A DNA stretch of 64,000 bases from Candidatus Doudnabacteria bacterium (GCA_963840645.1 CAWIZL010000004.1:395470-459469), one strand, 5' to 3'. Numbered from the stretch's first letter, positions 3,442-46,118 are shown. Notes: generated by a model from the sequence alone, not told the origin. Program-made: numbers and translations.

Positions 3442-3456
3442 ACTCCTCCTTTTTTC

Positions 3457-3520
3457 TCTCACCACAGCAAACCATCGAGTGATTTTCTAAGGTGAAGGCT
3501 CGGATGGTTTCATCCGAGCC
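3457..3520 (-). promoter_or_regulatory. conserved intergenic hairpin motif, copy L1, plus adjacent GC hairpin
   Basis: tctcaccacagcaaaccatcgagtgattttctaaggtgaag aligns with the four copies at 43.7-45.4 kb. The GC hairpin gctcggatg...catccgagc lies at 3498-3520. Confidence 0.6.
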
Positions 3521-3559
3521 GTAAGTTGGGCATGCGCATTCTGCGCATGCGGTTGGAGG

Positions 3560-4955
3560 CTACCTCTGAGAGAGGTTCGCGAGGCGGTCGAGGTACGGCT
3601 TTGCCTCGTCGCCGAAGACAGCCTTGACCCTTGCCTCGAAGCCCTCGCGGAACTTCCCGCTGGCTCGGGCAATGGCGGAACGCAGGCTGTAGCCGAGCCT
3701 CCTTGCTGTAGTAGCCGAAGTCAGCCTTGAGGAACTTCTCCCACGGGCCGTTGGTGAACTTCCCGTTGAGCTGGTCCCGCATCTCGAGTGCCTTGATCGC
3801 CCACTCGAGCTGCTCGCGCTGCGAGAGGTCTGCCCAGGTCTTCTTGGCGCGGCGGGGGCTCCTCGGTTGTGCCTGAGCCGTGTGCGGTGGCTCGGGAGAT
3901 GCCTGCGCCTGTGGAGCATGGCCGTTGGCTATGCTTGTTCCCCGCGCTGCATCGAGCAGGGCGCGGAATGTGCTGAGCTGCTGGCTGTCGGCCAAGAGCT
4001 GGGTGTACTCGGCTTGTATATCGCCGCCCAGCACCCTGACGAGTTCGTTGAGTCTTGAGGTATTCTCCATCTTCGTTTCACTTCCTTTCGTTGCGGGTTG
4101 AACTGCGATTGGTTGAACTGCTGTACCAACGGGTGGCACGCTGACCTCAGCGAATGCCGTCGCGTTGGCAAAGAAAAGTTTGCTGCCCACCCACGCTTGC
4201 GCGAAGGCGAGCTCTGAGCAGCTCGGTGTTTGCTGTCCGAAGTGGAAGAAGTACGTTCGCATTCGGAAGGGCTGGCGCTTGTAGCGGCTGACGTAGATGT
4301 ACCTTTCGATTAAGACAGGCACCCACGGCAGCTGCTGAACGCGCAGGAGCTCGGCCATCTCGATGAGCAGGCCGAACTCGCGCTTGGCAGCCTTGGCCGC
4401 ATCAAAGGGCTTGAAGAAAGCCGAGGCATCCTGCCTGACGGGCACACAGCGCTGTTGGGCTACGAGTTGGTCGTACAGGGTGCTTGCCTGTGAGCCGAAC
4501 AGCCGCTTGCCCCGCGCTCGGAAGCTCGGCCACTGCTCGAGCACCAGGTTGCGCCGCTGGTCTGCAACCGTGATTGCCAGGCAGCAGCCAGTGCTCTTCA
4601 GTACGAGCGGGAGCACGGGTGAGAAGTTCTGAATAGCCGCGTTGCTCATGGTTCCACACAAGTCGAGGTGGAAGCCGTCAATGTACGCCCGCGCTTCGCC
4701 GTGTCCAGCGAGGATGCGGTCGAAGGTTCGGAGTTGGTTGTGCGTGCCGTAGCGGTGGGTAGATATGAGATCGCCCGCCCGCTGCCTGTTGCGCTCGATG
4801 AGCCAGCCGTGCTCTGTGGGAACGTTGAGTTCCGACCAGAGCTTGGCTTCTAGGCCTCGTCCGCCCAAGGTCGCAAGCTGCGCCTGCCCGATGGGAACGT
4901 ACCGCGACAGGAACGATAGGAAAAGTCGAATTACCTGCTCTTTAGTAGCCTCCAT
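3560..4955 (-). pseudogene. hypothetical protein, apparent frameshift near 3695-3712
   Basis: The 481-aa ORF reads MEATKEQVIRLFLSFLSRYVPIG.... After ...ADFGYYSKE a plausible C-terminus (RLGYSLRSAIARASGKFREGFEARVKAVFGDEAKPYLDRLANLSQR*) continues in the frame of ORF 3560..3919. Confidence 0.5.
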
Positions 4956-5066
4956 AAGGCCTCCTGATAGATTTGAAAAAACATTTCCGCAGAGAAAAAT
5001 TTCTCAACAGAACTATCAATTGTAATAGTAAATCATCTTTTTGTCAAGTCGAGAAATAAGGCGAAA

Positions 5067-5095
5067 TTGACATAATTGATTAAAAAACCTATAAT
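5067..5095 (+). promoter_or_regulatory. sigma70-like promoter
   Basis: TTGACA, 17 nt, TATAAT, 26 nt upstream of the ATG at 5121. Confidence 0.65.
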
Positions 5096-5120
5096 ACTGT
5101 GAATCCTGAGGAGGGTTGAA

Positions 5121-5882
5121 ATGGAACCGCAAAAGAAATCGCCCGCACTACCACTCGAAACTTTACAAAAGGTTGTTGAGCTGCGTAACACGCGAGAGAT
5201 TTCTCGCGCAGTTCAATACACCGAAGAAGAGCTGGCAACGCACCTGCAGCTCGGAACAACGGACACCGAATCCAAACAGCTGCTCATCGAGACCCTGCTG
5301 AGGCTCATCAAGGACATTGGCCTTGGACAGGACAACGTAGAGCTATCGGCAGCAATCGATGCACTGCTGGAAACCGTAGAGCATCTCGACCGCGCCGCTC
5401 TCGACTTGGTAGCTGGCGCAGAAGCGCAGGCTGCTGAACTTGCCGAGGAGCTCACGCATGTGGAGCCACGATCAGAGCAGTCTCTCAATCTAACGCTCGA
5501 CCAGATCTGCACCGAACTCCGCCGCCGCGAGCAGTGGAGCGATGCAGTCAGGAACGTCCAGGAGCACCTGGAAAACGAGCGGGATACGAAACGGGAGAGA
5601 CTGTCCGTGACGACCCAGCTTCTCAACCTCGATGCATGTGAGGATGAGCAGGCGGCTAGAGCAGAGAAAGGCCGTCTGGAAGCAGAGCTCGCCAGCGAAG
5701 AAGGCGTGATCACGAGCATTGTCACAATGCTCGCCGAGAACGACCAGGAGATCGGTACGCTGCTCTCGTACCGACAGGCCATCAAGCTGGTGGCGGCTGG
5801 TTTCCCAACCACCCTCATCGGCAAGCCGTTCCGCTACTTCAACAACTTCGGCGATAAAAATAACCCCACGACCAGTACTTGA
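5121..5882 (+). CDS. acidic coiled-coil-like hypothetical protein
   Basis: 253-aa ORF with SD GAGGAGGG and a strong promoter upstream. Confidence 0.6.
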   Translation: MEPQKKSPALPLETLQKVVELRNTREISRAVQYTEEELATHLQLGTTDTESKQLLIETLLRLIKDIGLGQDNVELSAAIDALLETVEHLDRAALDLVAGAEAQAAELAEELTHVEPRSEQSLNLTLDQICTELRRREQWSDAVRNVQEHLENERDTKRERLSVTTQLLNLDACEDEQAARAEKGRLEAELASEEGVITSIVTMLAENDQEIGTLLSYRQAIKLVAAGFPTTLIGKPFRYFNNFGDKNNPTTST

Positions 5883-5915
5883 TCGTGGGGTTCTTTGTTT
5901 GACTTCAGAGCGTTG

Positions 5916-7427
5916 CTACTTGAGGAATTCGCCCCTGACCTCGTTGGCGAACATCATTGCCTGGTAGCGGTCAGAGGGGAACTTGCTCGCGCCGATTGCC
6001 ATGAGCACCTGGACGAAGCAGTGTTCGCGCCGGGCGACCTTCTGGTCGGGCAGTGCCTTGTACCCCCCCCTCACATTCACGAAGATCATCTTCGGATTGT
6101 TGGGGCTGACCTGGGCAAAGACGTATGGGTGGAGCGTCTGGCCGCGGTAGAGGTAGAAGACCTCGTCGCGGACGCGGATGGCGATGTGCCGCCGGTACTG
6201 CCGTTCAGGGTCGGGTTCTCCCTTCTCGCCGCCGTCATCCTTACCGCCAGGTTCGGCGGGTTTCGGATCGCGGGGCTTGCGGGGCTCGCCACCCTTGTCA
6301 CCATCATCGATGATGAGGCCGAACCGTTCGTTGAACAGCTCTGCAAGCTCGTCCAAGGTTTCCGCAGCACTACCGTTGATCGAGTCCCGCTCGATGAGCT
6401 GCTTTGCCTGTGATGCGACGTCCCTGATGAGGAACATCAGCAGGCGCTGCCACTCCTTGTTGCCCTTGCGGGTGAACTCCTTGGCGAGCGTGCTACGCGC
6501 GGTGTTCTGGTGTCGGAGCAGCCCTGGTGCGAAGATGTCCCCGACGAGATCGGGGTACCACAACGGATCGGGGAGCAGCCTGCCAAGCTTCTGGCAGCTC
6601 GCCACCCGAAACCCTGTCTCATCGTCGCACAGCCAGATGCCGTCGCTGTCGGTGTTGCCCGCGGCGAGGCGGGCACGGTAGCGCCCGTCGGTTGATGACA
6701 GGTTGATCTCCTTCTCGAGCGGGGGCGGCTGCATTGCCTTGCCACCGATCGTGAGATCGAACATCTTGTCCTGCTCGCGCGGGAGGAGCCACTTGATTGC
6801 CTCGTAGATCTCGGCGTGGCTCTTGAAGATGGGGGTCGGGATGACGATCGCCGTGAATGGTCCCTGGAGGTTCTTGAGAAGCCCATTTCGGTGGATGTCG
6901 CTGAGATGAAGCGCTCGGTGTCGAAGCCCTGCTCCGTCTCTGCCTTCTCGGGGATGACGGGCACGAAGCGGACGTTGCCCGTCTTCGACGTGCGGGTGAG
7001 CAGGTAGTAGCCGTTCTTGATGCGGGTCATGACATCGTCGTGCAGGCAGTTCTCGTTGAGAGCGAGCGCCGCCAGTCGGCCGATGCCCTTCTGGGATGCG
7101 CCGCCGTACGATCCGTTCACGTGATTGCGGAGCTGGCTCAGCGGTGTGCCGAGCCAGTTGAAGTAGCGCTCGAGCGCTGGATCGGTCAGGCCGCAGCCGT
7201 GGTCCGAGCACGACGAGTGCCGGGCTCTTGCTGGGCGAGAGCGGGTGGTTGGGAACGAGCGACAGCTCGATCTTCGCCCGCTTGGGTTCCCAAACGTTGG
7301 GGTTGGCCATGCTGGCGACGACTGAGTTGCGCACCAGCTCCATGAGTCGCTGCCCGACGCTCTCGTAGAGGCCAGTGGCGAGGTTGTCGACCATGTGGAA
7401 CGCGGTAACCTTCATCTGGAATTTCAT
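5916..7427 (-). pseudogene. GHKL (HATPase_c-like) ATP-binding protein with two compensating frameshifts
   Basis: The N-terminal and C-terminal parts read in the 503-aa ORF frame. The segment ~6900-7205 only makes sense in the frame of ORF 6437..7120: DHGCGLTDPALERYFNWLGTPLSQLRNHVNGSYGGASQKGIGRLAALAL, which contains the DxGxG and GxxGxG boxes. Confidence 0.7.
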
Positions 7428-8125
7428 GACTTTGCCTTTCCCTTTCTCTTGCGACGTGGCAGTCCTATGTCTGAGAGGTCTTCTCTCGTCACAGGCTGGT
7501 TGCGAGCCGCGTTCGGCTCTGGGAAAACTACGGTGATGGCAAACGCGTCGCAGATTTTCTGCAGCGCACCGCGGATTTGCATCCGATCGCCATCGTAGAC
7601 ATCTGCTGGTGCTACGCCAGACTCAACAATCAGCCCGACGAGCGAGTTGAATAGAGATATGGTGTGGTCAATGAGCTTGCGGATGACCCCTGATCCAGGA
7701 CGATTGGTTGGTAGTTCAGCAACTGATATTTCTACAGCTGCAAGTGCCCTGCATGAATCATGCTCGTCACCGTTCTTGGGTTGTTGTTGGATTTCGATCT
7801 CCAGGAACGTGGCGTCCCCCAGTGCTTTGAGGGTGCGGAGCACGAGCTGGATATCTTTTTCCAACATAGGTGATTTACCAGACAGCCAGTGCCGTGCTTC
7901 GTGGAAGGATTCGCCCCTCATGTTTAGGTAGTGGCGGCAGAAGAAGCGAACCGCGTTGCGGGTTGCGCCACTTTCCGTGGGACTCTTGCTGGTGATGGCC
8001 GCCTCAAGCTGATCGAGCATCTTCGAGAAATCCCAACTCAGGGTTTCCTCATTGAGCTCGCTAGCTATGGACTGCTTGGCTCGTTCGTACGTATCCGATT
8101 GGCTTTGCGTGAGCTCTGAAGCCAT
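7424..8125 (-). CDS. hypothetical protein, upstream partner of the GHKL ATPase
   Basis: ORF 7424..8227 trimmed to MASELTQSQSDTYERAKQ... with SD AGGAGG. Its stop overlaps the GHKL start by 4 nt. Confidence 0.6.
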   Translation of the reverse strand: MASELTQSQSDTYERAKQSIASELNEETLSWDFSKMLDQLEAAITSKSPTESGATRNAVRFFCRHYLNMRGESFHEARHWLSGKSPMLEKDIQLVLRTLKALGDATFLEIEIQQQPKNGDEHDSCRALAAVEISVAELPTNRPGSGVIRKLIDHTISLFNSLVGLIVESGVAPADVYDGDRMQIRGALQKICDAFAITVVFPEPNAARNQPVTREDLSDIGLPRRKRKGKAKS

Positions 8126-8206
8126 GTAAAAACCTCCTCTAAAATTGGGAAACTGCATTCTCGACTTTCTTCGGGGTACAGCTAGGTATTGCCAGAAGAA
8201 TTCAGA

Positions 8207-8235
8207 ATTATATGGTATATTTGACAAAATGTCAA
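8207..8235 (-). promoter_or_regulatory. sigma70-like promoter of the two-gene operon
   Basis: Minus strand reads TTGACA, 17 nt, TATAAT. Confidence 0.65.
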
Positions 8236-10881: not shown

Positions 10882-10977
10882 GGGAGTAAGTTATAGTATT
10901 ACGGAAAGTATATCACTTTATTTGCCGGTACAAAAATTCTACGTGGTCAGGATCCTACTGATACTCACCTTAGGCAG

Positions 10978-11171
10978 GACATCCAATCAACTTCACCTGT
11001 AGCCACATGGGAAAGTGTTTGCTCAAGGGGGCACGATCCCGCAACCTTCCGCGCCACAGGCGGACGCTCTACCAGTTGAGCTACACCCACCACGAGTGTA
11101 TGAACCAAGAAACAAAAAACTCTCACACAGAAAAAGTGAAGAGCTTCGGTAACGCCCGCTGTGTCAGGCGC
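10978..11171. repeat. 194-bp direct repeat, right copy
   Basis: See 399..592. Confidence 0.9.
11026..11091 (-). pseudogene. tRNA-His(GTG)-like fragment, second copy
   Basis: Same 66-nt sequence as 447..512 except one base in the 3' strand of the T stem. It also lacks a 3' acceptor strand. Confidence 0.45.
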
Positions 11172-12298: not shown

Positions 12299-13097
12299 CT
12301 ATTTTATGATCAAAGATAGAAGGCCAATGCAGATGCTGTAGATGCCGAACGGCACGAGCGCATTCACCTCGTTCTTCTTGAAGTACTTCACCAAGAATGA
12401 AACTGATGCGTACGCAACAACGCCTGCAACCACGCCCCCTAAAACTGCAACGCCAAAGTTGCTGTGCATGCCAGGCTTGAGCAGCTTTGGCACTTCGAGC
12501 AAGCCCGCTGCCAGAATAATTGGCGTTGCAAGCAAGAACGAGAAGCGAGCTGCTGCCTCGTGGCTAAGGCCTGCCAGCAGGCCGCCAACGAGCGATGACC
12601 CAGAACGTGAAATTCCCGGAATGAGCGCGAGCGCCTGTGCTGTGCCAATCCAGAAAGCCTGCCACGGCGTGAGGCGTTCGAGCGAGCCGCGAATGCGCTC
12701 TTGGCGGCTCAGCCACTCACCTGCCAGCAGAATGGTCACCGTTCACAATGAGGAACATTGATGCAACCACAAAGCTCCCATACAGCGGTTCTAGTTTTTT
12801 CTGCAGCAGCAAGCCGAGGATGCCAGCTGGGATTGTGCCGACAACCAAGAGCAGCAGCAAGTTGTCTTTGCGCCAGTTCTTGATGATGCTCACCCAATCG
12901 CGCCAGAAGTAAGCAACGAGTGCGAGCGCAGTGCCGAGGTGCAGCATTGTGAGGAATGGCAGGAACTCTGGGTCGTTGATATTGAAGTGTAGCCCGAGCA
13001 AGTGTGGCAAGATGACCGCGTGACCAAGACTGCTGACTGGAAACAGCTCTGTAATTCCCTGGACTACTGCAAACACGAGTGACTGGAAGATTGTCAT
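12299..13097 (-). pseudogene. uppP: undecaprenyl-diphosphate phosphatase, split by a frameshift near 12735-12742
   Basis: N-terminal ORF 12717..13097 (MTIFQSLVFAVVQGITELFPVSSLGH...) and C-terminal ORF 12299..12739 (...ALIPGISRSGSS...) together form a full BacA/UppP. The junction reads LIVNG/VTILLAGEW. Confidence 0.85.
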
Positions 13098-19500: not shown

Positions 19501-19563
19501 TGGTGGAGGCTGTGGGACGAAGTTAGAGGGGAGATTGCTAAAATTAACTCGCCCACCTATTGA
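19501..19563 (+). repeat. attL of element A: tRNA-Lys 3'-end core TGGTGGA fused to the orphan recombinase tail (RLWDEVRGEIAKINSPTY*)
   Basis: tgg tgg agg ctg tgg gac gaa gtt aga ggg gag att gct aaa att aac tcg ccc acc tat tga. The core and reading frame match the recombinase A / tRNA-Lys junction at 22922. Confidence 0.75.
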
Positions 19564-21308: not shown

Positions 21309-21469
21309 TTAAGTGGTATATGTATCTAGTATAACGGGAACATGGAGACAGGGGCGCAAAACGCAGGGAGCAGCGTGGGCGCGTGGCAGTGCCACATTGC
21401 CCCCGCAGCCACGGGAGCGGCGAAGAGCTTGAGACAATACCCAAAGGCGAGTATCCTGCTGATACCAAC

Positions 21470-21497
<28 letters not shown>
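21309..21497 (-). CDS. remnant of a small Pro-rich protein (homolog of 27593..27796), 5' end overlapping recombinase A
   Basis: The C-terminus ...NVALPRAHAAPCVLRPCLHVPVILDTYTT aligns in frame with ...GVAAPPRTPPAPCPPVILDI of element B. The N-terminal part is antisense of the recombinase start. Confidence 0.3.
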
Positions 21498-22997
<1,500 letters not shown>

Positions 22998-23027: not shown

Positions 23028-23140
23028 GGTGGTGCGCACTCTGGGACGAAGTGGGACGAGCACTGCAAAACCACCAACTGAGAGATTATAGCGTAAACAA
23101 TGAAAAAGGGCAACAAATTTGGCAGCAAACTAAAGGCTAG
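23028..23140 (+). repeat. attL of element B: tRNA-Arg 3'-end core GGTGGTGCGC fused to the orphan recombinase tail (ALWDEVGRALQNH...*)
   Basis: ..g tgg tgc gca ctc tgg gac gaa gtg ..., in the same frame as agg tgg tgc gcc at the recombinase B / tRNA-Arg junction. It lies 30 nt from the tRNA-Lys 5' end. Confidence 0.7.
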
Positions 23141-27796: not shown

Positions 27797-27885
27797 CTCA
27801 CTTAATCCGAAAATGGAAACAATGAAACATCTGTTCTTGAATGTCAAAGTGGCAAAAGAAATTTTTAAGTAGTAGAATGCCTACC

Positions 27886-29403
27886 ATGAACATTCTCTAC
27901 TGCCGTAAATCATCAGAAGCCGCTGACAGACAGGTGGCATCCATAGATTCCCAGAAAGACACCCTGCTTGAGCTGGCTGAAAAGTCTGGCTTGGGTGATG
28001 TTAAAATTTTCACCGAGAGCATGTCCGCCAAAGAACCAGGCAGGGTAGAGTTTGCAAAAATGATTACGCTGGTCAAGGCAAACCCAGGCAGCACATTGCT
28101 CGTGTGGAAACTAGACAGGCTTGCTCGTAATCCCGTAGATGAGGGAGAAATAAAATGGCAGTTGCAGATTAAAACAATTGCACGAATCATCACGCCCGAG
28201 AGAACCTACTACCCAGAAGACAACTCTTTGATCGCCTCTGTGGAGTTCGGCATGGCAACTCAGTACATCAAAGATTTGTCTGCCAACGTAAAGCGCGGCA
28301 ACAAGAGCAGACTAGAAAAAGGTGGGCTGCCTGGCGCAGCACCGATTGGCTACTTGGACAACAAGCTCACCAAGCACAAAGAGGTTGACCCTGTGAGGTC
28401 AGTCTTCATCAGGCAAGCATTCGAACTGTACGCCACTGGTGGGTACTCGCTCAAGCAGATCAACGTAATGATGCACGAGAAAGGCTTGCGCAGTAAGGGT
28501 GGGCTGAAACTCAGCAAGTCGAAGATGCACTACATGCTACAGAACCCCTTCTACCACGGCATCATCCGCAGGGACGGACAATTTTACAACGGCGCACATG
28601 AGCCGCTGGTGTCCACACAACTGTTCCAAGACGTACAGCGCGTCCTGTCGGGCAAGTCTCGCCCACGACCTCAGAACCACTTCTTCCACCTTAGAGGCAT
28701 GGTGTCATGCGCCCAGTGTGGCTGCGCCTACACTGGCTCAGACAAGAAAGGCCACGTGTACTACTACTGCACGAACGGACGAGGCAAGTGCGATCAACAT
28801 AAAAAGTACATCAGCAAGAAAGCTATCGATGAGCTGACTGCAAAACTCTTCACCGAAATTCAGTTCTCCGAAGAAGCCATTGAGATTGGATACCTTGCCG
28901 CCAAGGAAAACGCCGTTGCACAGTCCAGCTCTTCGCACACCCAAGAAAGCGAATCCTCCAAGAGGCTCAAGATCGTCCGCCAGCAGCTCGCGAACCTCGT
29001 GGAGGTAATCGCGACTGACCCGAGCACGGTGAACGTGCTCAAGCCCCAAATCTTGTCTCTGGAGGCGGAAGCAAAAGCAATCGAGGGTCAGGTTTCAACT
29101 GCCAAGCCCCAAACGCTCGATGAAGCCTTATCTACTTTGGAACAAACAAAAAAGGCCTTTCTACAGGCCTCTTCTGCTAGTTCTGACTATTCAAATGGCA
29201 CTGATGCGTACAAGTTTGAAATGCTCAAAAATTTACTTTGGAACTTTTCACTGGAAGACCAAACTGTGCAGTCGTACCAGTTCAAAACGCCGTTTTCTCT
29301 GCTCGCCAAATCCCCTAAAAACCTCGATTTGGACAGGTGGTGCGCCCGGCAGGATTCGAACCTGCTACCTTGTGGTTCGAAGCCACACGCTCTATCCAAA
29401 TGA
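27886..29403 (+). CDS. large serine recombinase B
   Basis: Paralog of A, with most positions identical by eye. Zinc ribbon CAQCGCAYTGSDKKGHVYYYCTNGRGKCDQH. The last ~22 codons are antisense of tRNA-Arg. Confidence 0.9.
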   Translation: MNILYCRKSSEAADRQVASIDSQKDTLLELAEKSGLGDVKIFTESMSAKEPGRVEFAKMITLVKANPGSTLLVWKLDRLARNPVDEGEIKWQLQIKTIARIITPERTYYPEDNSLIASVEFGMATQYIKDLSANVKRGNKSRLEKGGLPGAAPIGYLDNKLTKHKEVDPVRSVFIRQAFELYATGGYSLKQINVMMHEKGLRSKGGLKLSKSKMHYMLQNPFYHGIIRRDGQFYNGAHEPLVSTQLFQDVQRVLSGKSRPRPQNHFFHLRGMVSCAQCGCAYTGSDKKGHVYYYCTNGRGKCDQHKKYISKKAIDELTAKLFTEIQFSEEAIEIGYLAAKENAVAQSSSSHTQESESSKRLKIVRQQLANLVEVIATDPSTVNVLKPQILSLEAEAKAIEGQVSTAKPQTLDEALSTLEQTKKAFLQASSASSDYSNGTDAYKFEMLKNLLWNFSLEDQTVQSYQFKTPFSLLAKSPKNLDLDRWCARQDSNLLPCGSKPHALSK

Positions 29404-29414
29404 GCTACGGGCGC
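29338..29414 (-). tRNA. tRNA-Arg(TCG)
   Basis: GCGCCCG TA GCTC ATTTGGATA GAGC G TGTGG CTTCGAA CCACA AGGTA GCAGG TTCGAAT CCTGC CGGGCGC A CCA. Confidence 0.92.
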
Positions 29415-35631: not shown

Positions 35632-35810
35632 TGGAGCGGGAGGCCAAAGCTTTTGCTTTGGCACTTCCATTTCGATTTGCTCCGCAAATCAAATAGGTGA
35701 AGGTCGCTTGGCCGTTCGGCCTTCGCTGCCGCTCAGGCACTCCGGCACCGCCTTGCAACTCCAGACTGTGGAACGAGGTTCGAATGGAAATAGCTAAAAT
35801 GCTGCCTTAA
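35632..35810 (+). repeat. orphan tail c1: tRNA-Gly core TGGAGCGGG (35632) separated by a 125-nt insert from the tail LWNEVRMEIAKMLP* (35766-35810)
   Basis: Hairpin plus core at 35601-40, as found left of tRNA-Gly. The tail is ctg tgg aac gag gtt cga atg gaa ata gct aaa atg ctg cct taa. Confidence 0.6.
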
Positions 35811-36612: not shown

Positions 36613-37679
36613 CTTGGTTTCAATAGTCTAGCGCAACGAGGTGATATGCTCACCTCGTATGAACACACCAAACTACAGGCGTCTCTCCGGCCGTGAACGG
36701 GAGGAGATCAGCAGGGGCTTGGCGGCTGGTTCTTCCCGAGCGGACATCGCACTCCAGCTCGGCAGGAGCACGAGCACGGTTGCCCGAGAGGTTGCGGGCA
36801 ACAGCGGCGCCAGCGGGTACCGGGCGTTCTCGGCTGGGCAGCGTGCGCGGGCTGCGGCGGCAGCCCGCAGGGGTGGGATCCGCCGCCTCGACCGTGAGCC
36901 GCGGCTCCGCGCGTACGTGGTCGCGGGGCTGCGGAAGCGGTGGTCGCCGCGGGAGGTCGTCAGGCGGATGAAAATGGAGTATGCTGCTGACAGCAGTATG
37001 CGCATCTCCCACGAAGCCATCTACCAGTACATCTACGTCTTGCCGCGGGGCAGCCTGAAACAGGAGCTGGTCTCGGCGCTGCGCCGCGAGCACGCCTACC
37101 GCAGGAAGACCGGCGGCAAGGGGCGGCCCGGGGAAGCGCGCGGCAGGATAGCCGGGATGCTCTCCATCGAGGAGCGCCCAGCCGAGGCTGCCGACCGAAC
37201 CGTGCCAGGCCACTGGGAGGGCGACCTGATCCTGGGGAGGCACAAGCGGTCTGCCCTCGGCACGCTCGTGGAGCGCACCACGCGGTACACGATCCTCGTG
37301 CCGCTCGGCCGCCAGAAAGATGCCGCCAGCGTACGCCGGGCGTACGCGCGAGCTTTCCGCTCGGTGCCGCAGGAGCTGGCGAAGACGCTCACGTACGACC
37401 AGGGCAAGGAGATGTCCCAGCACGCGAGGTTCACCGTTGCCACGGGCATCCAGGTCTACTTCGCACACCCGGCATCCCCGTGGGAGCGGGGCACGAACGA
37501 GAACACGAACGGGCTCATCCGGCAGTACTTCCCGAAGGGCACCGAGTTCGACAAGGTCTCCACGCGGGAGGTCAAGCGGGTGCAGCGGCAGCTGAACGAC
37601 CGGCCGAGGGCGGCGCTAAGCTTCTACAAGCCAGACGAAATCTTTAACCGACTCGTTGCGCTAAATGTTTGAAACCAAG
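36613..37679 (+). mobile_element. IS30-family insertion sequence, strongly GC-rich relative to its surroundings
   Basis: Terminal inverted repeats cttggtttcaatagtctagcgcaacgag (36613-36640) and ctcgttgcgctaaatgtttgaaaccaag (37652-37679). Single transposase ORF. Confidence 0.85.
36659..37672 (+). CDS. IS30 family transposase
   Basis: N-terminal HTH-like region. DDE region HWEGDLI...TLTYDQGKEM...YFAHPASPWERGTNENTNGLIRQYFPKG. Confidence 0.9.
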   Translation: MNTPNYRRLSGREREEISRGLAAGSSRADIALQLGRSTSTVAREVAGNSGASGYRAFSAGQRARAAAAARRGGIRRLDREPRLRAYVVAGLRKRWSPREVVRRMKMEYAADSSMRISHEAIYQYIYVLPRGSLKQELVSALRREHAYRRKTGGKGRPGEARGRIAGMLSIEERPAEAADRTVPGHWEGDLILGRHKRSALGTLVERTTRYTILVPLGRQKDAASVRRAYARAFRSVPQELAKTLTYDQGKEMSQHARFTVATGIQVYFAHPASPWERGTNENTNGLIRQYFPKGTEFDKVSTREVKRVQRQLNDRPRAALSFYKPDEIFNRLVALNV

Positions 37680-37718: not shown

Positions 37719-37794
37719 TGGAGCGGGCTGTGGAACGAGGTTCGAAGGGAGATAGCTAAGAATTCTACTTTTCAAACAGGCTAACGTACTCGAA
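37719..37794 (+). repeat. orphan tail c2: TGGAGCGGG plus [18 protein letters not shown]
   Basis: tgg agc ggg ctg tgg aac gag gtt cga agg gag ata gct aag aat tct ... taa. Confidence 0.7.
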
Positions 37795-38991: not shown

Positions 38992-39085
38992 CCTTACGGT
39001 GCAACAAAAAACACCAATGTTTAGTTGGTGTTTTTTGCTGGAGCGGGCTGTGGAGCGAGGTTCGAAGGGAAATAATTAAGAATAT
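38992..39085 (+). repeat. copy of the tRNA-Gly downstream flank (38992-39038) plus orphan tail c3 (TGGAGCGGG plus LWSEVRREIIKN...)
   Basis: ccttacggtgcaacaaaaaacaccaa is identical to 47711-47736. A hairpin follows, then tgg agc ggg ctg tgg agc gag gtt cga agg gaa ata att aag aat. Confidence 0.7.
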
Positions 39086-40486: not shown

Positions 40487-40501
40487 TCTACCACACCAAC
40501 T

Positions 40502-40573
40502 TATTGGAATGAGGTTCGAAGTGAGATAGTTAAGAATTCTGGTTTAGTTTATAGCCTTTCCCGTAAAGATTGA
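40502..40573 (+). repeat. orphan tail c4: YWNEVRSEIVKNSGLVYSLSRKD* (no Gly core)
   Basis: tat tgg aat gag gtt cga agt gag ata gtt aag aat tct ... Confidence 0.6.
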
Positions 40574-40659
40574 ACATAAAAAATCCGCCAGGCTTGAGCA
40601 ACCTGGCGGGAACAGACTTAGCTATTGGCAACACTAACCTTCACTGTATTCTTCTGAGA

Positions 40660-41040
40660 CTACGCCGCCGTCTCCACGGCAGGCTCTTCACCCTCCAGCA
40701 GGCCGAGCTTCCTGAGAAATTCAATAGCTACCTCAGTGACCTCGTAGCTCTTCCACGTGATTTGGCCGCGGTGCTCATCACTGTTGTCAAAGCTCTTCCA
40801 GTAAACCTCGATTGAGCCTTTGGCTATGGCCTCACGCACCAATTTGGCCATTGCCCGCTTCTCGGCTGCATCAGTGCGTTTGCCTGGAATGCGCTCGAAA
40901 GCCTCCTCGATGGCTTCATCGCAGACGAGTCCATCGCACCGCTCGAACAGGTCGCGCTCGTCCTTTGCGAGAAAGAACCTGGAAGCTCCGATCATCGTGT
41001 GCCGAAGCACAAACAATTTTAAAGCCGCCTTTGCTGCCAT
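40660..41040 (-). CDS. hypothetical protein
   Basis: Trimmed to MAAKAALKLFVLRHTMIG... with SD GGGGGA. Terminator hairpin ccgccagg...cctggcgg downstream. Confidence 0.5.
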   Translation of the reverse strand: MAAKAALKLFVLRHTMIGASRFFLAKDERDLFERCDGLVCDEAIEEAFERIPGKRTDAAEKRAMAKLVREAIAKGSIEVYWKSFDNSDEHRGQITWKSYEVTEVAIEFLRKLGLLEGEEPAVETAA

Positions 41041-41196
41041 TGGAATTCCCCCTTGAAAATCTACCCTTACACGAGCCAGCACTTTTAGGTCTCTGGATTC
41101 AGACCGAGTTTCCCCGCCCCAGCAAGCCAGCAATTGGTTTCCTAGGGTAGAGGCTCGTGCAACTAGACACGAGCCAGGTTTGAAACCTGCAAGAAG

Positions 41197-41586
41197 CTAC
41201 CGCTTCGCCAATCTTACAGGTCTGAGGAATGCGGCGACTGTCGGATTCAGAGACTTAGCACCTGTGTGGTCAACCTCAAACCTGACGCTATCCCCTTTGT
41301 GCAAGACGGCGAACTCGCCCCAGTGGGCTGAGTAATCGTCCACGGTTATGTCTCTCAAGATGAGCGACCTGTCTGTGCCGTGCACGAAGCCAAAAGTTAC
41401 CGTGCCATTCTCCTCGTAGTGCCGCGAGACGACAAACCAGGTACTCGCCGCCATTTCATCTGCCTGCTTAGATGACTTGGCGATGTACTGCCCAATGTTC
41501 GCACTTCGAACTTTGACACCGATGGCCACCAGAGAACTGACTGCCAGGATAATGGAAATACCTACAGCCAGCGGCTTCTTCTTCAT
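41197..41586 (-). CDS. membrane-anchored hypothetical protein
   Basis: MKKKPLAVGISIILAVSSLVAIGV..., with a signal or anchor segment. Confidence 0.55.
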   Translation of the reverse strand: MKKKPLAVGISIILAVSSLVAIGVKVRSANIGQYIAKSSKQADEMAASTWFVVSRHYEENGTVTFGFVHGTDRSLILRDITVDDYSAHWGEFAVLHKGDSVRFEVDHTGAKSLNPTVAAFLRPVRLAKR

Positions 41587-41706
41587 TGTTATTCCTCCTC
41601 AATTCACGGACAAAAAAGAGTAGCACGTTCCTTGCTTTTGGTCAATGCGTATTGGATAATATTTAAAGACTTTCTACCTAGTAAAAAATGAAGAAGTTTT
41701 TACATA

Positions 41707-42069
41707 TTATCTCAGATAAAACTCAAGCCTGATGCCGTCGGGGTCGTCGAACCACAGGAACTCTCGCTTGCTGTACCTGTCAATTTGGATGCCGCTGTTT
41801 TTTATGGCCGCACCCTGTAGCTTCTTGGCGTACCGCTTCAGCTCAACCACGCTCTTCACCCTGAACGCGAGGTGGTTCAGGCCAATGTTGTGCTTGTCAA
41901 AGCTGCGGGCACTCTTCTTGTACGGGTTGGTCAGGAACAGCTTCGTATCGCCGAGCTGCCAGCTGGCATCCCACTCGCTGACTTTCGACTTTTCCAAAAA
42001 AGATTGGTAGAATGCCGTGCTCTTCTTGAGGTCTTTGACTGATATGACAATGTGGTCGAGTGAGGGCAT
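41707..42069 (-). CDS. VOC family (glyoxalase/bleomycin-resistance fold) protein
   Basis: MPSLDHIVISVKDLKKSTAFYQ...GLNHLAFRV... Confidence 0.8.
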   Translation of the reverse strand: MPSLDHIVISVKDLKKSTAFYQSFLEKSKVSEWDASWQLGDTKLFLTNPYKKSARSFDKHNIGLNHLAFRVKSVVELKRYAKKLQGAAIKNSGIQIDRYSKREFLWFDDPDGIRLEFYLR

Positions 42070-42082
42070 TTGTGGGTTTTAA

Positions 42083-42640
42083 CTAAATGGACTTAAGGTA
42101 CTTCTTCACCTTCACGAGAGCCTTCTTGCGCATAGACGTTTTCTCTTTCTCTATCTCGCCCATCTCTGCCCACGTCTGGGTGTACCCTTTGGGGATGAAG
42201 ATGGGATCCCAGCCAAACGTTGTTTTGCCTTTTGGTTCTGTACTGATAGAGCCAGACGTACTGCCAGTAAATATTTTCGCAGTCTTCCCGTCGTATATGC
42301 AGTACGCTATCTCAGCTATTGCGCTCTTGTCCTTGTAATTTCTGAGGAGATCGCAAATGCCCTCGTTGCCCAAGGACTTCAGGAATCACTTGATGAGTGA
42401 GCCTGGTAAGCCGTTCATTGCGCCAAATTTTAGTGAAACGTCTTCCACCATCACGGGTTCCCGAATGATCTGGTACGCTGTCCTAGCCTTGTGCTCGACC
42501 ACCTCGCGCACGTCGAGCGACTGTATCTCTGGTAAATCAATGGAGCGCTGACGAATAGACACGTCGAAATACTCGCTCAGATACCTTGCCTTTGCGGGAT
42601 TTCCTGTTACGAATGTTAAATTTGTTAAATTCTTAGACAT
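42083..42640 (-). pseudogene. rdgB: non-canonical purine NTP pyrophosphatase (ITPase, Ham1/RdgB family) interrupted by an in-frame TGA at 42386-42388
   Basis: FVTGNPAKA...VMVEDVSLKFGAMNGLPGSLIK-TGA-FLKSLGNEGICDLL...FGWDPIF. It aligns with human ITPA ...[24 protein letters not shown], so the stop sits on the conserved Trp. Confidence 0.85.
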
Positions 42641-42681
42641 GGCTAGATTCCTTAGCTTAATCTACTTAGATTGTACCACGA

Positions 42682-42783
42682 GACAAACTTGGAACGCTTT
42701 GCGACGTTAGAACCTATTGGCAGACTACGGATGAGAGGTTTTACATACCAAAATTGTCCCTGGAGAAGGCTTTGGTCAATTAA
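42682..42783 (+). repeat. orphan tail c6 (long variant): ..LCDVRTYWQTTDERFYIPKLSLEKALVN*
   Basis: Homologous at the peptide level to c5 (LVHDVRTFWRSTDERFFIPMLSLESVELA*). Confidence 0.6.
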
Positions 42784-42861
42784 AAATCCTTCTCAACTCA
42801 CCAGAGACTGGTGAACTCAGAAGGATTGCGGGACGTTCGTACTGAACGCCCCGCTTTGTTG

Positions 42862-43053
42862 CTACAAATCCGCTCGGAGGCGGAAGATGAGCCAGATGTA
42901 GGCCGCGACGGGGAGAACGAGGATGGTTGCCACCACCCACAGAACCTTCCCCCACCAGCGCGGCGCTCTCCACACCATGCGACCCGTGAAGAGCATCGCG
43001 CACAGCGTGGCGATGCACGCTGCTGTGAACCAGAGAACCTTTTCGTCAACCAT
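42862..43053 (-). CDS. small two-TM membrane protein
   Basis: 63-aa ORF, last gene of the GC-rich operon. SD AAGGAGG upstream. Confidence 0.5.
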   Translation of the reverse strand: MVDEKVLWFTAACIATLCAMLFTGRMVWRAPRWWGKVLWVVATILVLPVAAYIWLIFRLRADL

Positions 43054-43087
43054 AAACCTCCTTGAGAGAATTGGAATGCTTGAACGC

Positions 43088-43591
43088 TCACTTGCCGATG
43101 ATCCACGGGCGCAGCGCGGTACACTTGCCGATGGTGCTGTACAGGATCTCGACGCCTGGAGTCCGCAGCAGCTCCTCTGCCTCGTACTGCTTTCTGTCCG
43201 CAGTCAAGTGGATGAACCCCAGCTGCTTCTCGATCCGCCGCTTCATCGCTGCGTCGAGCAACGAGGCCGCCTTACACGTTTCGGCAAAACCGGCGTGACC
43301 CTGCTCAACGGCGTTGGCGAAGTTCTGGATGATGTCGTGCGACTCGTTGCGGATGCTCGACTGGAGCGCCCGCTCGGCTTCCCCAGCGTCGAGAATGTAA
43401 CGCTCCCGCTCGACCTCCCGCTTCTCGACCGTCCACCGGACGTTGGCGAGCTCGTCAATCTTCTTGTCGGCGAGCTGCTCGTTGGCGAGAAACGCGGTGG
43501 CTGCCAGAGCGGCAGGCGTTGCGGGTTTCGTTTGCTGGGCGAACGACGTGCCCAGTACGAGCAAGGTAAAGGCGATGAGTTTCTGCGTCAT
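43088..43591 (-). CDS. secreted hypothetical protein
   Basis: MTQKLIAFTLLVLGTSFAQQ, a signal peptide. Confidence 0.55.
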   Translation of the reverse strand: MTQKLIAFTLLVLGTSFAQQTKPATPAALAATAFLANEQLADKKIDELANVRWTVEKREVERERYILDAGEAERALQSSIRNESHDIIQNFANAVEQGHAGFAETCKAASLLDAAMKRRIEKQLGFIHLTADRKQYEAEELLRTPGVEILYSTIGKCTALRPWIIGK

Positions 43592-43712
43592 GGTCTTGCA
43601 CACTCCACTTTTCCCTGGTTACTCCCAGAGAACACAGAGACCTAGAAAAAGTAGGTAGCTGAATACTCTGGAAGTACGCCTAGTCTGGTTCAATAAACAA
43701 GCCTCCTTTATG

Positions 43713-43774
43713 TTCTCACCTCAGCAAACCACGGAGTGATTTCCTAAGGTGAGTGCAGAAGTTTTGGCTTCTGC
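43713..43774 (-). promoter_or_regulatory. conserved intergenic hairpin motif L2 plus GC hairpin
   Basis: ttctcacctcagcaaaccacggagtgatttcctaaggtgag, then gcagaag..cttctgc. Confidence 0.65.
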
Positions 43775-43812
43775 CCCAGCAAAGCCCTGCTGGGTGGGGA
43801 ATAAACTGTTCG

Positions 43813-44208
43813 CTAGTGCATTCGCAGTGGCACCAGGCTCTCGTACCAGTTTTTTAGGTAAGCCTGCACCTCGGGGTGGTCCCCGATGGCCTGCTCGATA
43901 AGCTGGGCCTGCTGCCTCATGCCCTTGGTGAAGGCGACCGTGACCAGCTCCTCGAGTGCGGCGCGGACGGAGTCCTCGCTCGCGTTCGCCATTGCCTCGA
44001 GCGCCTTGAATCCGTCCTGCACGCTAGGGTTTTGGACGAACTCGATGCTGCCGGTATTGATCAAGCCGATGGCGCTCTCGCTTGAGCCATCGTCTTCGTT
44101 GCCGTCGAGGTCTCGCTGCACCTCCTCGATCGTCTCCATGGGGGTGACGACGCCGTAGTGCTCTGCCTTGCCGCCATCCAGGTCCTGCCGTACGAATGCA
44201 ATCCTCAT
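43813..44208 (-). CDS. acidic hypothetical protein
   Basis: Trimmed to MRIAFVRQDLDGGKAEHYG... with SD AAGGAGAGG. Confidence 0.55.
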   Translation of the reverse strand: MRIAFVRQDLDGGKAEHYGVVTPMETIEEVQRDLDGNEDDGSSESAIGLINTGSIEFVQNPSVQDGFKALEAMANASEDSVRAALEELVTVAFTKGMRQQAQLIEQAIGDHPEVQAYLKNWYESLVPLRMH

Positions 44209-44239
44209 TACGTTCCTCTCCTTTGAATTGAAGTTTTGT

Positions 44240-44306
44240 TTCCTCACCTCAATAAACCAAGATTGATTTGCTGAGGTGAGGCTCGCAGGGATTGGTGTCT
44301 GCGAGC
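44240..44306 (-). promoter_or_regulatory. conserved intergenic hairpin motif L3 plus GC hairpin
   Basis: ttcctcacctcaataaaccaagattgatttgctgaggtgag, then gctcgcag..ctgcgagc. Confidence 0.65.
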
Positions 44307-44320
44307 TTGTTGTATGTGGC

Positions 44321-44590
44321 TTACGTAGCCACGCCGTCTTCCTCGATGGTGGCGTTGTTCCGCCTCCAGGCATCCTCGGCCATGCCCGTCTGCGTCCCCT
44401 TGAGGACGAGCCAGGTCGGGCCAGAGTCGCTGACGGGGCACGGGATGCGCTCCATCTCGTGCCTGCCGGGGGCAATCACGGGAAAGGCTTCTTCCTCGTT
44501 CTCCCAGCGAGTGCCCGCTGCGAGGCGCTCCCGCAGAGCCTTGCCGTTTGTCAGGTGCCAGCTGTCGGTGATGACCACAAAGATGCTCAT
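44321..44590 (-). CDS. hypothetical protein
   Basis: Trimmed to MSIFVVITDSWHLTNGK... with SD AAAGGAGAA. Confidence 0.5.
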   Translation of the reverse strand: MSIFVVITDSWHLTNGKALRERLAAGTRWENEEEAFPVIAPGRHEMERIPCPVSDSGPTWLVLKGTQTGMAEDAWRRNNATIEEDGVAT

Positions 44591-44638
44591 GCTGTTCGTT
44601 CTCCTTTGGATTGTAGGTACCGTCGATTGATTTTTGTG

Positions 44639-44700
44639 TTCTCGCCTCAACAAACCACGAAGTGATTTCCTGAGGTGAGTCGCCAACGTTGAGGTTGGCG
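44639..44700 (-). promoter_or_regulatory. conserved intergenic hairpin motif L4 plus GC hairpin
   Basis: ttctcgcctcaacaaaccacgaagtgatttcctgaggtgag, then cgccaac..gttggcg. Confidence 0.65.
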
Positions 44701-44750
44701 TTCAGCGTAGCCCCGCTGAACAGGAATGCCGGGTCGCCGTGCATGGTCTA

Positions 44751-45278
44751 CTACCGCTTGTCGAACTGCTCTTGCAAGAAATCGTCGAGGGTTGGCAGTC
44801 CCTCGCTGGCAACTTGGTCGGCCAATTCTTCGTCGAGCGCACCGAGCACGCCTTCGATGATGTGTGCCGTGTACTCTCCTGCGGTTGCAATGCCATCCTC
44901 GCACGTCGGGTTGGTCTCGGGTCTCGACACGAACCCAGGGAAGTAGGGCATCATGGTGGCCTTGAAGTTGTAGGCCACGTCCGCGTCTGAGCTGCCCTCG
45001 AGTGGGGTTGTGACCACCACCCGCTTACCAGTCTGCCGCAGCTCCCTGATCTTGCTCGAGACGCTGCTGTCGCAGGACGGGCAGGTCAGGACGATTACCA
45101 GAACCACGCCAGCGTCCTCCGCTGAGGATGCCGCTTCGTGCTCCGCAGCAACGCGTTTCCTGATGTCGTAGAGCGCGTTCATGATGCACGGTGCCATTTC
45201 TTGGCAGGCACACCTGTCAGCGTAGCCGCCGTATAAACCGTCGTTCGATCCGATAAGTACCACGTGCACCTTTGACAT
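44751..45278 (-). CDS. hypothetical protein
   Basis: MSKVHVVLIGSNDGLYGGYADRC..., 175 aa, SD AAGGAGG. Confidence 0.55.
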   Translation of the reverse strand: MSKVHVVLIGSNDGLYGGYADRCACQEMAPCIMNALYDIRKRVAAEHEAASSAEDAGVVLVIVLTCPSCDSSVSSKIRELRQTGKRVVVTTPLEGSSDADVAYNFKATMMPYFPGFVSRPETNPTCEDGIATAGEYTAHIIEGVLGALDEELADQVASEGLPTLDDFLQEQFDKR

Positions 45279-45317
45279 TTTTCATGCCTCCTTGTGTCGA
45301 GAACCCTTGGAGTTGCT

Positions 45318-45381
45318 TTCTCGCCTCAATGAACCAAGATTGATTTGCTGAGGTGAGGCCGCGACGTTGTTCTGTCGCGGC
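45318..45381 (-). promoter_or_regulatory. conserved intergenic hairpin motif L5 plus GC hairpin
   Basis: ttctcgcctcaatgaaccaagattgatttgctgaggtgag, then gccgcgac..gtcgcggc. Confidence 0.65.
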
Positions 45382-45394
45382 TGGTCGTGTGTTG

Positions 45395-45811
45395 CTAGTA
45401 CTCGCGCTCCATGTGCAGGGAGCCGTCGTAGTGGTTGCGATCGTTCCCGCCAACCTCGTCGTCATCGTTGCAGTCCTCGCAGAGCGAGAAACCGTAGGTG
45501 ACGTTCGGCTCGCGCACGCCCTTGAACCACATGTGCTTGCCGCACTTGCAGGTCAGGCGGTACGCGGGACTGTTGAGGACGGCCTTACGGTCGTACCCGC
45601 CGTCCAGCTCGTCGCCGTCAGGTCCGCTGAAGCGAGAGAACATCTCCACTGGGGTGCCCGTGTTGCGGTTGGTGGCGATGAACTCATCGGCACGATCGGC
45701 TGAATCCAAGTTAATGTCCTGCTGGTCGGCTTCCCCAGGGTGAATCCGGAAAGTCCAACCAACAAAAATCCCCGTTACAACTTCCTGTGCGGTGGCGGTA
45801 CTAGTTCGCAT
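45395..45811 (-). CDS. hypothetical protein with Cys-pair (zinc-ribbon-like) motifs
   Basis: 138 aa, ...CKCGKHMWF...CEDCNDDD.... SD GGAGA. First gene of the operon. Confidence 0.55.
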   Translation of the reverse strand: MRTSTATAQEVVTGIFVGWTFRIHPGEADQQDINLDSADRADEFIATNRNTGTPVEMFSRFSGPDGDELDGGYDRKAVLNSPAYRLTCKCGKHMWFKGVREPNVTYGFSLCEDCNDDDEVGGNDRNHYDGSLHMEREY

Positions 45812-45832
45812 TACATTTTCTCCTTCTGGTTG

Positions 45833-45891
45833 TAGAAATATCGCTATTTCTAGCTACCAAGAGTGTAGCACATTTCCTTGCTATTTGTCAA
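45833..45891 (-). promoter_or_regulatory. operon promoter with a perfect palindrome in the 5' UTR
   Basis: Minus strand reads TTGACA (45891-45886), ~18 nt, TACACT. Palindrome TAGAAATA-tcgc-TATTTCTA at 45833-45852. Confidence 0.5.
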
Positions 45892-45973
45892 TAGGTATTG
45901 TGTAATATATTAAGAGGTTCTAACTTGTCCTAAGGTGTATTAAAAAAGTACTGCAAACATTGATGATTTGAAA

Positions 45974-46072
45974 TGGAGCGGGTTAGTGCACGACGTTAGA
46001 ACCTTTTGGCGGAGTACGGACGAACGTTTCTTTATCCCGATGCTGTCCTTGGAATCAGTCGAGTTAGCCTAA
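45974..46072 (+). repeat. orphan tail c5 (long variant): TGGAGCGGG plus LVHDVRTFWRSTDERFFIPMLSLESVELA*
   Basis: tgg agc ggg tta gtg cac gac gtt aga acc ttt tgg cgg ... Confidence 0.65.
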
Positions 46073-46089
46073 TAACCCCAAAATAGGCT

Positions 46090-46118
46090 TTTGACACGAT
46101 GGACAATTTAGGTTAGAA
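46090..46118 (+). promoter_or_regulatory. sigma70-like promoter
   Basis: TTGACA, 17 nt, TAGAAT. Confidence 0.65.

Follow-up and report, generated by a model that had tools for sequence, protein, structure and literature searches.

In the 64,000-nt stretch of the chromosome of a Candidatus Doudnabacteria bacterium that was analyzed here (the window; one strand, and all statements on confinement hold within these 64 kb), we describe a conserved hairpin of about 40 nt that is present in six copies, all of them located between orphan genes of three GC-rich clusters and each placed directly behind a GC-rich hairpin of the preceding gene. We propose, with a probability of roughly 0.4, that this motif is a cis-acting punctuation hairpin of polycistronic mRNAs that serves their processing or stability. 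The motif is a new family within a well-known kind, namely palindromes that recur between the genes of operons and mobile genomes; what sets it apart is the docking of a conserved hairpin on a variable one and its confinement to acquired orphan clusters. The window is bacterial chromosome that encodes GroEL, RelA/SpoT, HisRS, ComEC, NusB and BipA along with five tRNAs, and relatives of two of its proteins come from Patescibacteria (the sources bear names like Zambryskibacteria and Paceibacterota). Patescibacteria are uncultured and combine tiny genomes with many orphan genes; to our knowledge, almost nothing is known about gene expression and the organization of foreign genes in these bacteria. 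Against this background, the motif offers a marker for tracing one mobile gene pool across this genome and its sibling genomes, a concrete RNA element to probe for processing or protein binding, and an independent case beside the hairpins of mycobacteriophages known as extended start-associated sequences (ESAS).

The conserved hairpin and its place at gene ends

The five copies listed in an initial annotation of the window are all present on the minus strand where it had placed them. Four of these lie in a six-gene orphan operon (genes g1 to g6; 42862-45811, minus strand), at 45314-45359 between g1 and g2 (stem 45357-45320), at 44635-44681 between g2 and g3 (stem 44679-44641), at 44237-44282 between g3 and g4 (stem 44280-44243) and at 43709-43755 after g4 (stem 43753-43715); the fifth is found at 3452-3498, between the genes i1a and i1b of a cluster that we denote island 1. 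Together, they form a 47-column alignment with a mean identity of 83%. A 17-mer derived from the left arm has eight matches in the window at up to three mismatches, compared with 0.28 expected, and none of 100 shuffles reaches eight; since the element is a palindrome, this 17-mer matches both arms. A covariance model (hereinafter R1) of the five original copies, a check that the initial annotation had suggested, was run on the window with filters off and scored these copies at 64-71 bits (64.7, 70.0, 67.6 and 70.6 bits in the operon, in the above order, and 63.8 bits in island 1). It added a sixth, diverged copy that had escaped the initial list, at 41107-41153 on the minus strand (31.9 bits, E 2.5e-6), between the genes h1 and h2 of a second small island. 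All six copies are on the minus strand, in gene sense and between co-directional orphan genes, and no copy is found in the approximately 50 kb of host-like sequence in the window; the early impression that the motif marks GC-rich orphan islands holds, given that it occurs only in three such clusters.

In each copy, the two arms (CUCACCUCAGGAAAUCA and UGGUUUGYUGAGGYGAG), separated by a 4-5-nt spacer, form a 10-bp outer stem, a 1x1 mismatch and a 6-7-bp inner stem with a 4-5-nt loop. The fold described initially, an outer stem enclosing an inner one, is retained, with the outer stem extended from 9 to 10 bp. Compared with shuffled controls, four of the five original copies have much more stable folds (-17.5, -20.8, -23.7 and -24.7 kcal/mol from the g1/g2 copy to that after g4, with z-scores of -3.2, -4.3, -5.8 and -6.2, respectively); the signal is weaker for the island 1 copy at 3457 (-13.1 kcal/mol, z -2.0). 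Pair and column counts refer to the six copies from this single genome. Standard pairs occupy 93.8% of the pair cells, compared with 34-50% when the 3' partners are slid, and seven pairs vary yet stay paired, five of them through G-U wobble and two through double changes. Both double changes, from U-A to C-G at pairs 4:40 and 9:35 of the outer stem, belong to the sixth copy. The observed covariation score is reached by 11 of 500 shuffles; because the two double changes come from one sequence, the covariation support is real but thin. These findings support the motif as a conserved hairpin under some pairing constraint, as the initial annotation had claimed on the strength of a different example, namely a compensatory change from C:G to A:U between two sequence variants. 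That example is void because A-U pairing in AAAUCA-A-UC-U-UGGUUU leaves a 2-nt loop, which is impossible; the predicted fold has a 4-nt loop in the two copies concerned.

The two variants are GG-AAAUCAC-UUC-GUGGUUU-GU (variant A, in the copies g2/g3 and after g4) and GC-AAAUCA-AUCU-UGGUUC-AU (variant B, in the copies g1/g2 and g3/g4). The variants alternate along the operon (B-A-B-A), an order that chance alone would produce in 1 of 3 cases. Across the six copies, 21 of the 47 columns are invariant; variability is highest in the loop and at the internal mismatch, and a U/C difference in column 38 is found in both variants. We also considered the possibility that the arms mimic a Shine-Dalgarno/anti-Shine-Dalgarno duplex (GAGGUGA/UCACCUC) and give it little weight: the full 7-mer is present in two of the six copies, with no start codon at the right distance.

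In five of the six copies, the predicted fold is more stable for the gene-sense strand than for the opposite one, and one copy is a tie (for example, -24.7 versus -12.8, -20.8 versus -15.3 and -12.9 versus -7.6 kcal/mol), and the inner stem of five of the six copies contains a U-G wobble where the opposite strand would have A-C. On balance, this comparison favors the transcript sense, short of proof.

The motif was initially described as preceding gene starts, which is the wrong anchor. For every copy, the motif stem starts 0-1 nt past a GC-rich hairpin of 6-10 bp, the sequence of which differs each time. All these gene-specific hairpins are on the minus strand. The one at 45358-45381 (GCCGCGAC..GUCGCGGC) abuts the 5' side of the g1/g2 copy in the minimum-energy fold; in the folds of the other intergenic regions, those at 44281-44306 (GCUCGCAG..CUGCGAGC), 3497-3520 (GGCUCGGAUG..CAUCCGAGCC) and 41152-41175 (GGCUCGUG..CACGAGCC; sixth copy) likewise abut the motif, and those at 44681-44700 (CGCCAAC..GUUGGCG) and 43755-43774 (GCAGAAG..CUUCUGC) end 1 nt before the motif stem. 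The motif lies 37-71 nt past the upstream stop codon and 16-123 nt before the next annotated start; the fixed junction with the upstream hairpin, combined with this wide range of start distances, ties the motif to gene ends rather than gene starts. That each copy follows the upstream stop codon and a variable GC-rich hairpin lacking a U-run had been recognized from the outset and is borne out by both sequence reading and folds. The nucleotides just 3' of the motif stem form a short tail rich in A (GAGAACACAAAA and similar). None of the six copies is followed by a U-run, and a terminator scan makes no call at these sites; a scan of the gene strand from 45800 to 42800 detects no promoter-like sites inside the operon. 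The absence of both kinds of signals is consistent with read-through transcription.

Directly after the copy at 43709-43755, there is a possible 24-codon open reading frame (ORF) with a TTG start (MNQTRRTSRVFSYLLFLGLCVLWE; 43619-43693, minus strand), preceded by AAGGAGG 8 nt upstream. Its product would be a small hydrophobic peptide, and such a gene may explain the long gap to g5. The operon ends (42782-42854, minus strand) with a predicted GC-rich hairpin at 42854-42828 followed by a long hairpin at 42827-42785 that contains UUCACCAG..CUGGUGAG and ends in a U-run; this second hairpin is a weak R1 match (14.7 bits, E 0.11) and may be a degenerate motif copy turned terminator.

Database searches agree with the initial annotation, in which the motif could not be assigned to a class. 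Comparison of the whole window with Rfam at the gathering score yields only tRNAs, and at E values up to 10 over 40500-46100, there are five chance-level matches, none of these at motif sites. An exact-pattern scan of species-representative genomes gives eight singletons, with an estimated chance expectation of about 8-9; two scans of viral contigs give no matches, and scans of metagenome contigs give none and then one (L022). The latter lies next to a tRNA in a contig of high GC content and is perfectly palindromic; we regard it as a chance match, given that the effective information of a pattern is halved when it is palindromic, so the metagenome search that had been suggested initially yields no further copies that we would accept. 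A blastn search of phages and plasmids with the whole operon produces no match.

The motif-bearing islands and their relatives

The operon consists of g1 (45811-45395), g2 (45278-44751), g3 (44590-44321), g4 (44208-43813), g5 (43591-43088) and g6 (43053-42862), all on the minus strand, with a GC content of 0.60 and a GC content at third codon positions (GC3) of 0.73-0.78 in the ORFs measured; the GC content of the flanking genes is about 0.47-0.52. The three motif-bearing clusters span 0.54-0.61 in GC and 0.62-0.79 in GC3, with the strongest signature in the operon, and probably represent one lineage of horizontally acquired, GC-rich, mobile-element gene clusters. A promoter of its own had been attributed to the operon, and a promoter-like site, TTGACA-18-TACACT with an upstream TG, is indeed located at its head (45891-45862, minus strand), followed by the likewise previously noted palindrome in the 5' untranslated region (TAGAAATA-N4-TATTTCTA; 45852-45833, minus strand). 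The operon island is bracketed by 63-nt direct repeats (right copy 42702-42764, left copy 45991-46053) that are 75% identical and share an identical 14-nt core, AGGTTCTAACGTCG.

The second small island (40585-41700, minus strand) consists of a promoter module shared with the operon (TTGACC..AGCAAGGAA, 41645-41628), the orphan genes h1 (41586-41197) and h2 (41040-40660) on either side of the sixth motif copy, and an ordinary hairpin-plus-U terminator (40609-40585). The promoter region common to the operon and h1-h2 extends over about 75 nt (approximately 41700-41617 in the second island) and reads TTGAC-N4-AGCAAGGAA..GTGCTAC; no instance of this module was detected in viral contigs.

The six operon products are orphans, as reported initially: none has a significant match in Pfam or PHROGs, PADLOC gives none for g1, g2, g4 and g5, and g2 has no relatives among 5.8 billion protein clusters. 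The same holds for the ten motif-adjacent proteins as a set: Pfam gives no significant match for any of them, nor do PHROGs, PADLOC or NCBIfam for those tested; a tblastn search of phage genomes with eight of the ten island proteins also gives no match. The ten proteins are unrelated to one another, which rules out the spread of the motif through gene duplication. The product of g1 contains a four-cysteine CxC...CxxC pattern and could be a candidate for nucleic acid binding.

Island 1, with its membrane-protein gene i1b (3441-2899, minus strand), lies inside a 10.5-kb block that is bracketed by a 202-nt direct repeat (391-592 and 10970-11171, 96% identical). This repeat holds a degenerate tRNA-like sequence that matches positions 8-63 only of the Rfam tRNA model. 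The GC-rich block is probably an integrated element; no recombinase was recognized inside it. The gene i1a appears to be frameshifted near 3690, and because its conserved C-terminus (VFGDEAKPYLDRLANLSQR*) is in the frame of the ORF 3560-3919, its true stop is at 3562-3560.

A gene module located in 3510-8227 recurs in other Patescibacteria (loci L015, L018, L023 and L025). It comprises genes for proteins of about 230-290, about 503 and, on the other strand, about 200-253 amino acids, together with the i1a family (172 representative clusters). The protein of about 503 amino acids shows a weak GHKL-ATPase match in one relative, and a large serine recombinase is encoded within about 7 kb of the module in two related loci. 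In i1a, the N-terminal half weakly resembles a class I methyltransferase fold (Foldseek E ~1e-4, low TM-scores), and the i1a-family module has no match in PADLOC or NCBIfam. Given this fold and the lack of assignment to a defense-system or NCBIfam family, we rejected the idea that i1a is a recombinase acting on the hairpin.

Thirteen main related loci in Patescibacteria were reached via the neighboring glyoxalase gene and the i1a family. In those of the loci that contain it, the i1a homologue, which is 52-66% identical to the protein from the window, ends in an ordinary hairpin-plus-T terminator, and the next called gene, if any, is on the other strand. Neither R1 nor a second covariance model, R2, finds a motif copy in the 13 loci, and there is no analogous repeated hairpin family in the six largest of these. 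Considering that i1a of the relatives ends in a terminator without the motif, the motif and i1b look like an addition to the module in the present genome.

Proposed function and comparison with known elements

If the motif is a punctuation hairpin, each cluster would probably give rise to one mRNA from the single promoter at its head, in which every cistron would be followed by the gene's own GC-rich hairpin and then, with no gap and possibly stacked on it, by the conserved 40-nt hairpin, the single-stranded, A-rich tail and the ribosome-binding site of the next cistron. Such a pair of hairpins would most likely serve to process or stabilize the mRNA. A double-strand-specific nuclease such as RNase III might cut within the 17-layer stem or, alternatively, the cut might fall in the A-rich tail; with either cut, the upstream cistron would become capped by 3' hairpins and the downstream cistron would be freed. 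The predicted geometry appears compatible with a T7-type RNase III site, in which some two helical turns of double-stranded RNA contain an irregularity: the motif has 16-17 pairs and a 1x1 mismatch, and stacking on the abutting hairpin could lengthen the helix. Precedents include the intercistronic RNase III sites of phages T7 and SP82 and the mRNAs stabilized by repetitive extragenic palindromic (REP) elements. In Neisseria mRNAs, RNase III binds Correia elements and either cuts or protects them (PMC2649163). With the T7 and SP82 sites and the Correia elements, the motif shares conservation of the hairpin, an internal irregularity, the lack of a U-run and a location between cistrons of a mobile genome; it differs in its shorter stem (16-17 pairs with the 1x1 mismatch) and, from the Correia elements, also in the lack of terminal inverted repeats and target duplication.

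Several observations weigh against this reading. The 16-17 pairs of the stem are at the short end of the range for RNase III substrates. The covariation rests on one diverged copy among six from one genome. An A-C mismatch at pair 6:38 in three copies would be G-U on the opposite strand, which makes the wobble asymmetry weak as a set of independent events. Co-transcription, the RNA level of action and the nuclease are deductions. Finally, sequence conservation, with its 21 invariant columns, is far above the need of a hairpin alone, and this speaks for a partner that recognizes the sequence, or for recent spread, more than for a generic nuclease site.

This strong conservation keeps alive a different reading, unlikely in our estimation yet the foremost of the alternatives, under which the motif binds a sequence-specific regulator whose gene belongs to the element or to the host, either as folded RNA or as a double-stranded DNA palindrome, and co-regulates the cassettes. 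ESAS of cluster K mycobacteriophages, the nearest known system by geometry, are suspected of such a role. ESAS are imperfect 17-bp inverted repeats with a spacer of mostly 4-13 bp located upstream of non-structural genes (PMC3203893). Like the motif, with its 17-nt arms and 4-5-nt spacer, they combine imperfect 17-nt inverted arms and a short spacer into about 40 nt in total, and occur in one orientation between genes in the orphan-rich, non-structural part of a mobile genome (PMC3203893; PMC12699233). In phage Anaya (L027), some ESAS hairpins (for example, at 28040 and 29034) also directly follow a variable GC-rich, terminator-like hairpin. The likeness does not extend to sequence: R1 finds nothing above 9.6 bits in Anaya 30000-60835, and the ESAS arm consensus (e.g., UGUUGACAUGCAUACAG in Anaya) is not shared by the motif. 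Furthermore, ESAS adjoins the start-associated sequence (SAS), 3-7 bp before the start codon, whereas the motif lies 16-123 nt before it and is fixed to the upstream hairpin, and ESAS belong to actinobacteriophages, in contrast to the Patescibacteria chromosome analyzed here. The 13-nt SAS itself (GGGATAGGAGCCC, up to two mismatches) is absent from both strands of the window; as a positive control, the right arm of Anaya yields 16 matches. The analogy with the SAS of actinobacteriophages drawn in the initial annotation is thus retained in geometry, for the extended form, and abandoned for the SAS itself and for any sequence relationship. The regulator reading gains from the fact that the motif is conserved in sequence much more than the neighboring structure-only hairpins, and from the cysteine pattern of g1, if that protein binds nucleic acids. 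It is, however, difficult to reconcile with the high variability of the loop and the internal mismatch, the bases that RNA-binding proteins usually read, and with the variable spacing to promoters and starts; furthermore, there is no candidate regulator with a recognizable domain.

A reading to which we assign a somewhat lower probability, and which is not mutually exclusive with the others, holds that the motif is a recombination junction where single-gene cassettes are assembled and shuffled, through site-specific recombination as in integrons or through homologous exchange as in the promoter-early stem-loop cassettes (PeSLs) of T4-type phages. The cassette-like array (unrelated, promoterless, co-oriented orphan genes behind one head promoter, with the same site between them), the apparent addition of the motif and i1b relative to the motif-less related loci, and the 63-nt repeats around the operon island keep this reading alive. 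In addition, the window encodes two large serine recombinases and an IS30 transposase, and the U/C difference of column 38 in both variants fits exchange between copies, or else recurrent mutation. PeSLs are conserved intergenic motifs that flank orphan ORFs in plastic genome regions (PMC4122927; PMC2839356), and the motif resembles them as a conserved intergenic stem-loop that flanks unrelated orphans. A PeSL, however, combines a terminator-like stem-loop with a sigma-70 promoter, whereas no promoter-like site follows the motif, and here, the conserved part is the hairpin itself and the variable part is the neighboring terminator-like hairpin. The analogy with integron attC sites, also proposed in the initial annotation, captures the arrangement, with one imperfect palindrome per promoterless cassette, co-orientation behind one head promoter and strand-biased folding, but fails for every sequence feature tested. 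Folded attC strands of 57-141 nt have an unpaired central spacer and extrahelical bases, whereas the motif hairpin is 40 nt long and contains a single, symmetric 1x1 mismatch without bulged or extrahelical bases; no attC core boxes (RYYYAAC, R''; GTTRRRY, R'), which mark both ends of an attC palindrome, are found in or beside the motif (copies with 40 nt on either side, both strands), and the sole match, on one strand, is an isolated box that falls about 30 nt upstream from the copy at 3457; and no integron integrase or other tyrosine recombinase is encoded among the approximately 66 ORFs of the window scanned with Pfam. Moreover, there are no hybrid variant sites in columns 13-32, and all the cassettes carry one GC/GC3 signature, suggesting that they arrived together rather than singly. 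A bolder version, which we consider quite improbable, is that the hairpin is the recombination site of a new gene-cassette capture system of candidate-phyla-radiation bacteria, with an integron-like logic, a 40-nt folded site that would dock at the foot of a terminator-like hairpin, and a non-integron recombinase. If the motif is a cassette junction, it would represent a new way to assemble gene arrays.

Two further readings rank below those of processing, regulation and recombination. That the motif is a selfish or neutral miniature palindromic repeat, akin to REP elements, miniature inverted-repeat transposable elements or Correia elements, which inserts beside hairpins and has no function, seems improbable to us. 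Such elements would be short, palindromic, intergenic and repeated as the motif is, and its position exactly at the 3' foot of pre-existing hairpins is reminiscent of some insertion elements and group II introns that insert at such sites. REP elements and the bacterial interspersed mosaic elements that contain them are, like the motif, imperfect palindromes of 35-40 nt located after stop codons inside operons, and REPs stabilize the upstream mRNA. REP elements are numerous across a genome, often in inverted pairs, and are accompanied by a RAYT gene. However, the 5' GTAG of REP elements is absent from all six copies, the motif has a single orientation and, in the 64 kb analyzed, is confined to the islands rather than scattered over the host-like sequence, target-site duplications are missing, and none of the ORFs scanned was recognized as a RAYT or IS200-type gene. 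Still more doubtful is a role of the hairpin pair as a leaky, U-less terminator or attenuator that grades expression along the operon. The operon does end with the same two-hairpin layout, there with a U-run, and the second hairpin weakly resembles the motif, as noted above; in contrast, the A-rich tail takes the place of the U-run of an intrinsic terminator at every one of the six copies, none of which is called by the terminator scan, and a generic terminator would have no need of a conserved sequence.

Other features of the window

Several additional features of the window lie outside the motif-bearing clusters. A family of 45-nt repeats is present at 19501-19545, 35757-35801, 37719-37763, 39039-39083 and 40493-40537, with a weaker member at 23030-23052. 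The consensus in the minus sense is AUUCUUAGCUAUCUCCCUUCGAACCUCGUUCCACAGCCCGCUCCA, and the copy at 19501 ends in GCCUCCACCA. Two copies are followed by hairpin-plus-U terminators, and neither ARAGORN nor Rfam calls any member of the family. These repeats look like the 3' end of a small RNA, or else like tRNA- or tmRNA-like attachment-site fragments left by successive integrations.

The two large serine recombinases are paralogues encoded on the plus strand at 21383-22963 and 27841-29403, with 70-80% DNA identity and 6416 nt between them. Their 3' ends overlap genes for tRNA-Lys (22922-22997) and tRNA-Arg (29338-29414), respectively, which suggests two further integrated elements. The IS30-family transposase gene (HTH_38 and rve domains; 36641-37672, plus strand) has a GC content of 67%, the highest among the ORFs of the window.

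Two genes of the window appear to be interrupted. A Ham1/ITPase-like gene (42083-42640, minus strand) is split by an in-frame TGA that falls where human ITPA presumably has a conserved tryptophan (IKWF). This TGA could be a nonsense mutation, a sequencing error or a site of read-through; the other long ORFs argue against a general reassignment of TGA. The BacA/UppP gene (12299-13097, minus strand) is represented by two ORFs that cover profile positions 2-124 and 134-257, which likely reflects a frameshift or a pseudogene.

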